Below, one piece after another: positions 4,981 to 7,338 of a stretch of 64,000 bases of DNA. A model generated the notes under the pieces. The model searched no databases. It worked only from the letters and a program-made list of their open reading frames with translations, and was not told the DNA's origin. A program made the translations under genes and the position numbers. Within the stretch, counting starts at the first letter, position 1. Every line of letters starts with the position of its first letter. Source of the stretch: an uncultured delta proteobacterium (GTDB lineage: Bacteria; Myxococcota; Myxococcia; Myxococcales; Anaeromyxobacteraceae); assembly GCA_963757745.1 (NCBI GenBank), contig CAVWSG010000007.1, positions 490,932 through 554,931 of the forward strand, read 5' to 3'.

Positions 4981-5956
4981 TCAGTAGGCGAGCACCTCGC
5001 GCACCGCCCGCACGATGCGCGGCGCCCGCGGCAGGTACTCGTTCTCCAGCGTGTAGGGGAACGGGGTGTCGAAGCCGGTGACGCGCGCCACCGGCGCCTC
5101 CAGCGAGAGGAAGCACCGCTCCTGGATGAGCGCGGTGAGCTCCGCGCCGAAACCGCAGGTGCGCGGCGCCTCGTGCACCACCACCGCGCGTCCCGTCTTG
5201 GTGACGGAGGCCACGATGGCGTCGAGGTCGAGCGGCTCCAGCGAGCGCAGGTCGAGCACCTCGCAGTCGATGCCCTCCTCCTCGGCCTCGCGCGCCGCGG
5301 CATCGGCCTCGTGCCACATGGCGCCCCAGGCGATGAGCGTCACCTGGTGCCCGGCCCTGGTCACCCTGGCCTTCCCGAGCGGCACCAGCGTGCTCCCCCT
5401 CCGGCACCTCGCCCCTGGCCGCCCGGTAGACGCGCTTCGGCTCGAAGAAGAGCACCGGGTCGGGGTCGCGGATGGCGCTCGCCAGCAGGCCCTTCGCGTC
5501 CTCGGGCGTGGCCGGGATCACCACCTTCAGCCCGGGGGTGTGGAGGAAGAGCGCCTCCGGTGACTGCGAGTGATAGTGCCCGCCGCGGATGCCCCCGCCG
5601 TAGGGCGCCCGGATCACCATGGGGCAGGCGTACTGGTTGCCGGAGCGGTACCGGTACTTCGCCACCTCGCTCACGATCTGGTCGAAGGCCGGGTAGATGA
5701 AGTCGGCGAACTGGATCTCCGGCACCGGCCGGAGGCCATACAGCGCCATGCCCAGCGCCGCCCCGACGATGCCGTTCTCGGAGAGGGGCGCGTCGATCAC
5801 CCGCTCCGCCCCGAACTCCTCCTGCAGGCCCTGGGTGGCGCGGAAGACGCCCCCGAAGTGCCCCACGTCCTCCCCCAACACCACCACGTCGCGATCGCGG
5901 CGCATCTCGATGCGGAGCGCGTCGTTCACCGCCTGGATGATGTTGAGGTTCGCCAT
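4981..5956 (-). CDS. 2-oxoacid dehydrogenase E1 beta subunit, reading frame interrupted once (~5395-5399)
   Basis: N-terminal part [32 protein letters not shown]...[20 protein letters not shown] sits in one frame. The C-terminal part (V)[22 protein letters not shown]...VREVLAY sits in the -1 frame. The junction lies at a C5/G5 homopolymer. Confidence 0.85.
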
Positions 5957-5963
5957 CGCCGGC

Positions 5964-7338
5964 TCAGGCGCGCCGCGGTGCGCGGGGGTCGGCCACCCGC
6001 GGGTCGCCGGCGAGCGCGCGCCGCAGCTCCTCGAGCTGCTCGCGCTGTGCGCGCGAAGGCTCGGCGTAGACGCCCTCGAAGAGCGTCTCGGGCGGCGGCC
6101 GGGCTGGCTGCGCCTCGGCCTCGCGCACCGCCGCCATGACGCGCGCCCTCGCCTCGGCCTCCTCGCGCGCACCTTCCACCTCGGTGAGGAGCCCCCGCCG
6201 AACGAGGTGCGCGCGCAGCCGGAGGATGGGGTCCTTCTTCCGCCACGGCTCCACCAGCTCGGGCGCGCGGTAGGCGCGAGGGTCGTCGGAGGTGGAGTGG
6301 CCCTCGACGCGGTAGGTGACGAGGTCGAGCAGGGTGGGCCCCTCGCCCCGCGCCGCCCGGGCTCGGGCGCGGGCGGTCGCCTCGTGGACGGCCAGGAGGT
6401 CGTTGCCGTCCACCCGCTCGCCGTGAATTCCGTAGGCCTCGGCCTTCCGGGCGATGGAGGCGGAGGCGGTCTGCCGCTCGACGGGGAGGCTTATCGCCCA
6501 GCCGTTGTTGCGGCAGGCGAACACCACCGGCACCCGGTGGACGCCGGCCAGGTTGAGGCCGGCGTGGAAGTCGCTGCTGCTCGTCGCCCCCTCGCCGAAG
6601 TAGACCAGCGCGACCATGGCCTCGCCCCGGATGCGCGCCGCCCAGGCGGCCCCCACCGCCTGCGGGATCTGCGTGCCGATGGGAGAGCTCACCGAGCTGA
6701 AGAGGGCCGGACGCCACGCCTGGTGGCAGGGCATCTGGTGGCCCGAGCATGGCGTCGCCGGCGTTGCCGAGCAGCCCGCAGATGAAGGTCGAGAGCGGCA
6801 GGCCGCGCATGAGCGCCACGCCCTGCTCGCGGTAGCTGGGAAAGATCCAGTCGCTGGCGGCCATGGCGCTCGCTGCGCCGAAGACGGCGGCCTCCTCGCC
6901 CACCGACCCCACGTAGAAGCCGATGCGCCCCTGCCGCTGCAGCGCCACCATGCGCTCGTCGAGCGCGCGGTCGAGCACCATCCAGCGGTGGAGCTCGAGG
7001 AGCTCGCCGTCGCCGAGGAGCGAGGGGCGCAGGGCGGCGCCGTCGGCCGCCAGCCCCCGGAGGAGCGGGTAGCGCTCGTCGCCCGCCGCGTCGCTCGCGC
7101 TGGGCCCGGCCACGGGCGCCGCCGCGTCGCGGGGCTCGGCGCCGGGCGTCGCAGGCATCGGCGGAAGGCTCTCCGGCTGCGAGGGTGCCGGGGCGGCGCT
7201 GGACGTCTCGGGGCCGGAGGGCGCGCCTTCCACCCGCGCCCGCCGTGCCTCGCGGCGCGCGCTGCCGTTGGCCTCGGCCCGGACACGCGCCGCCGCCGGC
7301 CGCGGCTCGGGCGGGCTCATCCCCCGCTCATCGGGCAT
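5964..7338 (-). CDS. 2-oxoacid dehydrogenase E1 alpha subunit (TPP-binding), reading frame interrupted once (~6739-6744), long Pro/Ala-rich N-terminus
   Basis: N-terminal part ...[53 protein letters not shown]...[10 protein letters not shown]-terminal part [40 protein letters not shown]...[12 protein letters not shown] is in another frame. The ATG at 7338 overlaps the lipA stop. Confidence 0.8.

Follow-up and report, generated by a model that had tools for sequence, protein, structure and literature searches.

The 64,000-nucleotide stretch analysed here, hereafter the window (positions 490,932 to 554,931 of contig CAVWSG010000007.1, assembly GCA_963757745.1, from an uncultured delta proteobacterium of the Anaeromyxobacteraceae), contains an operon for a 2-oxoacid dehydrogenase complex in which the genes for both E1 subunits, E1 alpha and E1 beta, are each interrupted by one surplus nucleotide. 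Both breaks are very likely consensus indel errors in the assembled sequence and would not represent a biological loss of the enzyme. We favour this interpretation because similar breaks are scattered over unrelated genes, because breaks of this kind are associated with the assembly platform among related genomes, and because the broken genes show no relaxed constraint.

The operon lies on the minus strand of the window, which has a G+C content of 72.6%. Its genes are, in operon order:

7328-8338, minus strand: lipA, lipoyl synthase LipA, intact (NCBIfam TIGR00510, 370.9 bits against a cut-off of 310.25; Pfam)
5964-7338, minus strand: E1 alpha, thiamine pyrophosphate (TPP)-binding, with one surplus base (Pfam E1_dh, PF00676, in two frames)
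4981-5956, minus strand: E1 beta, with one surplus base in the interdomain linker, which joins Transket_pyr to Transketolase_C
3648-4955, minus strand: E2 dihydrolipoyl acyltransferase, intact (Pfam Biotin_lipoyl 3-72/73, E3_binding 2-36/36, 2-oxoacid_dh 3-232/232)
2105-3562, minus strand: lpd, E3 dihydrolipoyl dehydrogenase, intact (NCBIfam TIGR01350, 519 bits against a cut-off of 408.8, profile positions 2-460/461; Pfam)
993-2156, minus strand: lipB::NUDIX, an in-frame fusion of LipB octanoyltransferase with a NUDIX hydrolase domain, intact (Pfam LplA-B_cat and NUDIX; NCBIfam LipB models)

Translation of E1 beta from the ATG at 5956 gives MANLNIIQ...RGEVPEG in one frame, and the rest, up to ...REVLAY and the stop codon ending at 4981, is one base out of phase. 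E1 alpha runs from 7338 to ...GNAGDAMLG and continues with HQMPCHQAW... out of phase until the stop at 5964. Both are +1 shifts and correspond to one surplus base each. The two pieces of each gene cover consecutive profile parts in Pfam searches, namely Transket_pyr 3-173/174 followed by Transketolase_C 1-124/124 for E1 beta, and E1_dh 2-82 followed by 89-298/300 for E1 alpha. Frame breaks were also detected independently with a Viterbi frame track based on the periodicity of G+C at third codon positions (GC3), combined with a stop-codon test on the upstream frame. This track switches at 5390 in E1 beta and at 6742 in E1 alpha, the upstream frame being stop-free for 550 nt and 814 nt, respectively. 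The E1 frame breaks are real in the deposited sequence and far from chance. Translation, Pfam coordinates and the Viterbi track all confirm what an initial annotation of this DNA had stated, i.e. that GEVPEG and the E1 beta continuation, and likewise GNAGDAMLG and HQMPCHQAW in E1 alpha, lie in different frames. Its statement that lipA, lipB and lpd are intact is borne out by their Pfam and NCBIfam coverage.

For the placement of the surplus bases 80 related loci were collected, and comparisons used the 15 closest, from Anaeromyxobacter-like genomes (hereafter the relatives). The two sites are:

6740-6744, minus strand: E1 alpha break, one surplus base in GGCCC (plus strand), either a G of GG 6740-6741 or a C of CCC 6742-6744
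5387-5389, minus strand: E1 beta break, one surplus base, best fitted by the isolated A at 5387 (plus strand)

Either repair of E1 alpha yields MLGHQMPCH, which is identical to relatives L007, L008, L010, L011 and L014. The initial annotation had put this break at a CCC run around 6739-6744, in agreement with our placement in a run of two or three nucleotides. Its placement of the E1 beta break in the C5 run at 5395-5399, from which removal of one C was said to restore a typical sequence, proved incorrect. The run belongs to three codons conserved in the relatives, GAG-GGG-GAG (E-G-E), and the identical G5 is present in L002. In a MAFFT DNA alignment to the relatives the extra base falls at CACG-CTGG, 6-9 nt downstream of the run. 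A repair inside the run, yielding P-E-G-S-T-L-V, was rejected by comparison with the 118 closest E1 beta homologues. In these, the first residue after P-x-G is E (99) or D (19) and never S, and the second is Y (98), F (8), H (6) or one of L, C and V, and never T. The third is A (88), T (15), L (8), E (4) or V (3) and the fourth I (71), V (39), L (4) or E (4). Removal of one base at 5387-5389 gives E-H-[A/L/V]-V, matching the homologues.

Once repaired, E1 beta is a protein of 324 aa; its alignments to the 15 relatives are gap-free in every case and show 80-83% identity. Among the best 120 database matches listed, nearly all have 324 aa and are 83-87% identical, and the named ones are annotated as Anaeromyxobacteraceae. 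The 134-aa C-terminal fragment (from GTG 5385) is already present as a separate protein in a public collection. No conspecific copy was found among the collections searched, in which the best E1 beta match is 87% identical and the best GTDB genome locus 84%.

The E1 genes are not the only ones affected. The window contains at least eight single-base frame breaks, six with a surplus and two with a missing base. At least six of them lie beyond the E1 genes, in four unrelated genes: a LarA-like gene (three breaks), a reductase fusion, L-rhamnose isomerase (RhaA) and phosphoenolpyruvate (PEP) carboxylase (Ppc). Counted by gene, the breaks were tallied as hitting five of roughly 58 genes, those named being E1 alpha, E1 beta and these four. 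The extra breaks were flagged by the frame track and the stop-codon test and then checked by translation and by consecutive Pfam coordinates in different frames. For the LarA-like gene and the reductase fusion, alignment was possible with the closest syntenic relative, L081 (ENA ERZ25039597 contig_5736, 530,734 bp, Flye-style), which matches window positions 10804-31338 at about 83% nucleotide identity. The genes and sites are:

19818-21436, plus strand: LarA-like gene (Lar_N / DUF2088), broken three times
20138-20142, plus strand: first LarA-like break, one base missing (GCGCG^GCAG); Lar_N 19-70 and 72-142 in two frames; L081 alignment
20370-20374 (about 20372), plus strand: second LarA-like break, one base missing (AGC^TGA), creating a TGA stop; Lar_N 72-142 and 146-194; L081 alignment; not a homopolymer
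21264-21268 (about 21266), plus strand: third LarA-like break, one surplus base (GGCC[G]CGAT); frame track and L081 alignment
21433-25936, plus strand: reductase / AMP-ligase / carrier / acyltransferase gene, with NAD_binding_4 and Sterile (fatty acyl reductase), AMP-binding, PP-binding and acyltransferase domains
21829-21831, plus strand: break in this reductase fusion, a surplus T at 21830 (GATC[T]AG) creating a TAG stop; NAD_binding_4 1-81 and 89-256/258; L081 reads GATC-AG; not a homopolymer
37912-37916, minus strand, in the gene 38017-36742: L-rhamnose isomerase break, one surplus base (CAG[A]ATC, coding strand); RhaA 2-30 and 31-417/417
50860-50865, minus strand, in the gene about 51600-48887: PEP carboxylase break, one surplus base (GCA[A]TTC, coding strand); PEPcase 1-228 and 239-919/919

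The repaired LarA-like protein has 539 aa and aligns without gaps to its intact homologue P0126, also of 539 aa, at 87-88% identity; the LarA-like gene of L081 is intact with 539 aa as well. The split in PEP carboxylase falls between the conserved VLTAHPTE and FGSWIGGDRDGNP motifs. The reductase fusion, a protein of about 1,500 aa, is flanked by epimerases, a HAD hydrolase and the LarA-like gene, and it may resemble the myxobacterial ether-lipid enzyme ElbD.

About 50 other genes of the window have full domain coverage in Pfam scans. Acetate kinase was considered as a further broken gene on account of a Pfam match starting at profile position 57, and was dismissed, as its N-terminal VKILVANLGSTSLKY motif is in frame and the gene intact. 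No independent nonsense codon was seen interrupting the window genes, the only two stops being those made by the indels, and no frame-shifting lesion other than a gain or loss of one base was seen in them. Scans of the window with Rfam and for tRNAs returned only a tRNA-Cys, and no RNA element at the break sites. Consensus error would be expected to leave the pattern found here: repair by a single base restores a protein colinear with its orthologues, similar lesions occur in unrelated genes of the contig, far more often than in intact genomes, and the orthologues in accurate assemblies are intact. The surplus E1 bases would accordingly be residual assembly indel errors that form part of a window-wide scatter.

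The part played by homopolymers was assessed from the homologue comparisons. The window contains 175 runs of at least five nucleotides, 38 of at least six and eight of at least seven, and none of the eight breaks falls inside a run of four or more. At least three occur at isolated bases (5387-5389, about 20372 and 21830). The fraction of window positions no more than 6 nt away from a run of five or more is 4.7%. With eight sites, chance alone would put one that close to such a run in about one case in three, so that an E1 beta break near the C5 run is unremarkable. The initial annotation had read the two similar E1 breaks as homopolymer-type indel errors and not biology. Its preference for error over biology stands, given the scattered breaks, the platform association and the constraint data described below; homopolymer-prone sequencing is not supported as the mechanism, as all eight sites lie outside runs of four or more.

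Two features of the breaks speak against our interpretation as assembly error. Most of them lie outside homopolymers, unlike the classic Nanopore error pattern. They are also clustered, with two in a 1.35-kb span of the E1 genes and four in a 1.7-kb span across the LarA-like gene and the reductase fusion, and this counts against assembly error because decay of operons that are already dead would produce clusters too. The non-homopolymer breaks are a better fit to consensus errors arising from low coverage or strain mixture. A mixture would mean that reads of co-existing strains were merged and that the polisher created chimeric single-base indels where the strains differ. Local clustering together with mostly non-homopolymer positions is what such locally confused consensus calling might leave behind. 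From the present data it is indistinguishable from plain low-coverage consensus error, of which it would be a sub-case with the organism's genes likewise intact; taken as an explanation of its own, we regard it as very unlikely.

A sequence motif shared by the eight sites was also sought. CCAG/CTGG occurs within 6 nt of four of the eight (background 0.21) and GATC near two (background 0.04-0.06). CACCAG/CTGGTG directly adjoins both E1 sites (5380-5390 and 6735-6745), and only 2% of window positions lie within 3 nt of it. This might hint at a motif-linked, e.g. methylation-linked, basecalling error. The enrichments are post hoc and marginal and could be due to chance, and a shared motif is not claimed.

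The broken genes appear to be under undiminished constraint. For E1 beta, dN/dS values of 0.14-0.38 were obtained for the part downstream of the break and of 0.16-0.22 for the part upstream, and across the 15 relatives conservation after the break is at least as high as before it in both E1 genes. The root-to-tip distance of E1 beta is 0.085, compared to 0.073 +/- 0.010 in the relatives, and lies within their range. The LarA-like gene, although broken three times, carries 19-26 lineage-specific amino-acid changes as against 25-35 in its intact sister. GC3 periodicity is fully kept after each break. Neither relaxed constraint nor a mixture of lesion types, by which genuine pseudogenes would be recognised, was found.

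These data bear directly on the alternative that E1 alpha, E1 beta and several other genes are genuine recent pseudogenes, lost through 1-bp indels in, for instance, a mutator or a genome-decaying population. The breaks are present in the sequence as given, and their grouping in two operons would be expected if further mutations gathered in dead genes. A resemblance to the frameshift pseudogenes of host-restricted or decaying genomes exists in so far as 1-bp indels disrupt the frames of conserved genes; the window differs from these in lacking nonsense mutations, larger deletions and faster protein evolution, and in that the partner genes are intact. All eight lesions are of plus or minus one nucleotide, unaccompanied by independent nonsense or larger lesions. 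The LarA-like gene shows no excess of changes, and E1 beta neither a raised dN/dS downstream nor a long branch, with periodicity kept throughout. Loss would moreover have struck central metabolism, i.e. Ppc and the 2-oxoacid dehydrogenase, with the partners E2, lpd, lipA and lipB left intact, and mismatch-repair mutators strike long homopolymers, which are spared here. Recent pseudogenization is therefore considered very unlikely, the more so as lesions of this type in the relatives follow the Nanopore platform and not phylogeny, as described next.

The operon proteins (LipA, E1 alpha, E1 beta, E2, Lpd and LipB::NUDIX) were searched against the 15 relatives with tblastn. The operon is free of frame breaks in the eight assemblies that are short-read, from isolates or of unidentified platform. 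Nine breaks, each at a different gene or position, were found in five of the seven metagenome-assembled genomes (MAGs) derived from Nanopore data: L004 in lpd, L006 in E2, L008 and L012 in lipA, and L013 in lipA, E2, lpd and, twice, lipB. Lesions among the relatives, as judged from these alignments, track the assembly platform and not phylogeny. L013, an ont.bin MAG, alone has five breaks; the operon region corresponds to about 7,700-16,900 of each relative's locus. The MFD-named MAGs come from the Microflora Danica long-read catalogue, which is Nanopore-only and was assembled with Flye and one round of Medaka (PMC12313526). According to Sereika et al. (2022; PMC9262707), consensus indels give rise to frameshifted gene calls, and polishing with short reads is required for Nanopore bins whose coverage is below about 40x.

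The alignment with L081 complements this comparison. L081 has split genes of its own, for fumarase, a molybdopterin oxidoreductase, the reductase fusion, an aldolase and an aldehyde dehydrogenase, and the pairwise alignment contains dozens of unpaired gaps of 1-2 nt where the window open reading frames (ORFs) are intact, about ten of them in fumarase. According to this alignment, the window contig and L081, two independent large-contig assemblies, carry the same type of lesion in different places. The L081 locus (21.6 kb) is far richer in 1-2 nt indels than the window, with roughly 40 unpaired gaps in 20 kb.

The contig from which the window was taken measures 598,878 bp, a size typical of long-read metagenome assemblies. 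It probably stems from a metagenome assembled from long reads (Nanopore-type) with little polishing, and its reads would probably not support the surplus bases. The breaks share with known consensus frameshifts of long-read sequencing (Nanopore or PacBio CLR; IDEEL test, short-read polishing, proovframe; PMC9262707; bioRxiv 10.1101/2021.08.23.457338) that single-base indels split conserved genes across one contig, and that short-read assemblies of relatives are free of breaks with Nanopore MAGs broken elsewhere. They differ in that the literature on this error class stresses homopolymers, to which the sites in the window do not conform, and in that the platform of the source contig is a presumed one.

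A further alternative is recoding, by which a programmed +1 ribosomal frameshift or transcriptional slippage would still allow full-length E1 subunits to be made. Both E1 breaks are indeed +1, and one sits 6-8 nt from a coding-strand G5 run. The frame is, however, continuous and of typical length at these positions in all 15 relatives and in all but one of the 120 E1 beta homologues listed, and a conserved shift site is missing. A slippery heptamer is absent from the E1 sites, as are a prfB-type pause at an in-frame stop or rare codon and the A/T run of at least seven that transcriptional slippage requires. The six further breaks, of both signs and in unrelated contexts, cannot all be recoding. 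We consider this explanation exceedingly improbable and retain that of consensus error.

Apart from the two breaks the locus is, on the strength of its domains and gene order, an ordinary clade-conserved operon for a TPP- and lipoate-dependent 2-oxoacid dehydrogenase complex with an E1 of the heterotetrameric type, of the pyruvate dehydrogenase (PDH) / branched-chain 2-oxoacid dehydrogenase (BCKDH) type. E1_dh is found in E1 alpha and Transket_pyr (PF02779) plus Transketolase_C (PF02780) in E1 beta, E2 and E3 are encoded alongside, and the order lipA, E1 alpha, E1 beta, E2, lpd, lipB::NUDIX is kept in the 15 relatives (tblastn). Neither E1 subunit has an unbroken reading frame as deposited, with one +1 break per gene. 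The repaired E1 beta passes NCBIfam NF006667 (PDH E1 beta subfamily; 336.8 against a cut-off of 321). The best NCBIfam match of E1 alpha, the PDH equivalog TIGR03181, scores 363.9 and is under its cut-off of 411.35, and all NCBIfam matches of E2 are under theirs. Because E1 alpha and E2 stay below the equivalog cut-offs, the substrate class is left as pyruvate or branched-chain 2-oxoacids (PDH or BCKDH).

Separate genes for E1 alpha (E1_dh) and E1 beta (Transket_pyr and Transketolase_C), an E2 with one lipoyl, one E3-binding and one catalytic domain, and an E3 gene within the operon are shared with the Gram-positive-type pyruvate dehydrogenase PdhABCD and with BCKDH. The operon differs from these systems by the flanking lipoylation genes lipA and lipB::NUDIX and by the interruption of both E1 frames as deposited. 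Myxococcus xanthus esg/BCKDH is an example of a 2-oxoacid dehydrogenase with a heterotetrameric E1. The LipB-NUDIX fusion is, to judge from single tblastn matches over residues of about 17-378 in most relatives, a real feature of the clade. The stop codon of lipA overlaps the start of E1 alpha by 11 nt. The first ~90 residues of E1 alpha (7076-7338, minus strand) are Pro/Ala-rich and have no counterpart in alignments to the relatives, where tblastn matches of 62-70% identity extend over residues of about 88-452. The true E1 alpha start may lie later than 7338.

Taken at face value, the breaks would lead to wrong inferences such as "no PDH/BCKDH", "no PEP carboxylase" and "no rhamnose isomerase in the microcompartment locus". 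More generally, reading of the raw sequence can detect frame breaks, and a neighbouring homopolymer is an unreliable pointer to their cause. That the surplus bases are real, the result of a very recent inactivation of E1, Ppc, RhaA, the LarA-like gene and the ether-lipid-type reductase by 1-bp indels, strikes us as highly improbable. In that case E2, E3, LipA and LipB would be orphaned, and the window would capture a free-living, high-GC soil bacterium in the midst of rapid metabolic streamlining or a mutator episode. Unlikely as they are, real indels would document that a free-living lineage of myxobacteria had inactivated several genes very recently.

Several other features of the window were recorded. 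Two ORFs with a strong coding signal, at 11983-13227 (minus strand, 414 aa) and 11436-12092 (minus strand, 218 aa), have no Pfam match. The stretch 12017-13263 is without a counterpart in the otherwise syntenic L081. A 2.8-kb stretch at 40468-43313 shows weak codon periodicity and contains:

40790-40861, minus strand: tRNA-Cys
40875-42080, minus strand: 401-aa ORF without a Pfam match
42341-42859, plus strand: 4HBT_2 thioesterase

A bacterial microcompartment locus extends over 26980-40530, mostly on the minus strand. Its shell genes encode three EutN/CcmL vertex proteins and several BMC-H proteins, one of them tandem, and its enzymes include two class II aldolases, an aldehyde dehydrogenase, acetate kinase, a PTAC phosphotransacylase and an RnfC/Nuo51-like flavoprotein. 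The L-rhamnose isomerase, broken near 37914, is encoded here together with an FGGY sugar kinase and an AraC regulator. The locus resembles those for fucose/rhamnose-type (PVM-like) microcompartments, here in a genome of the Anaeromyxobacteraceae.

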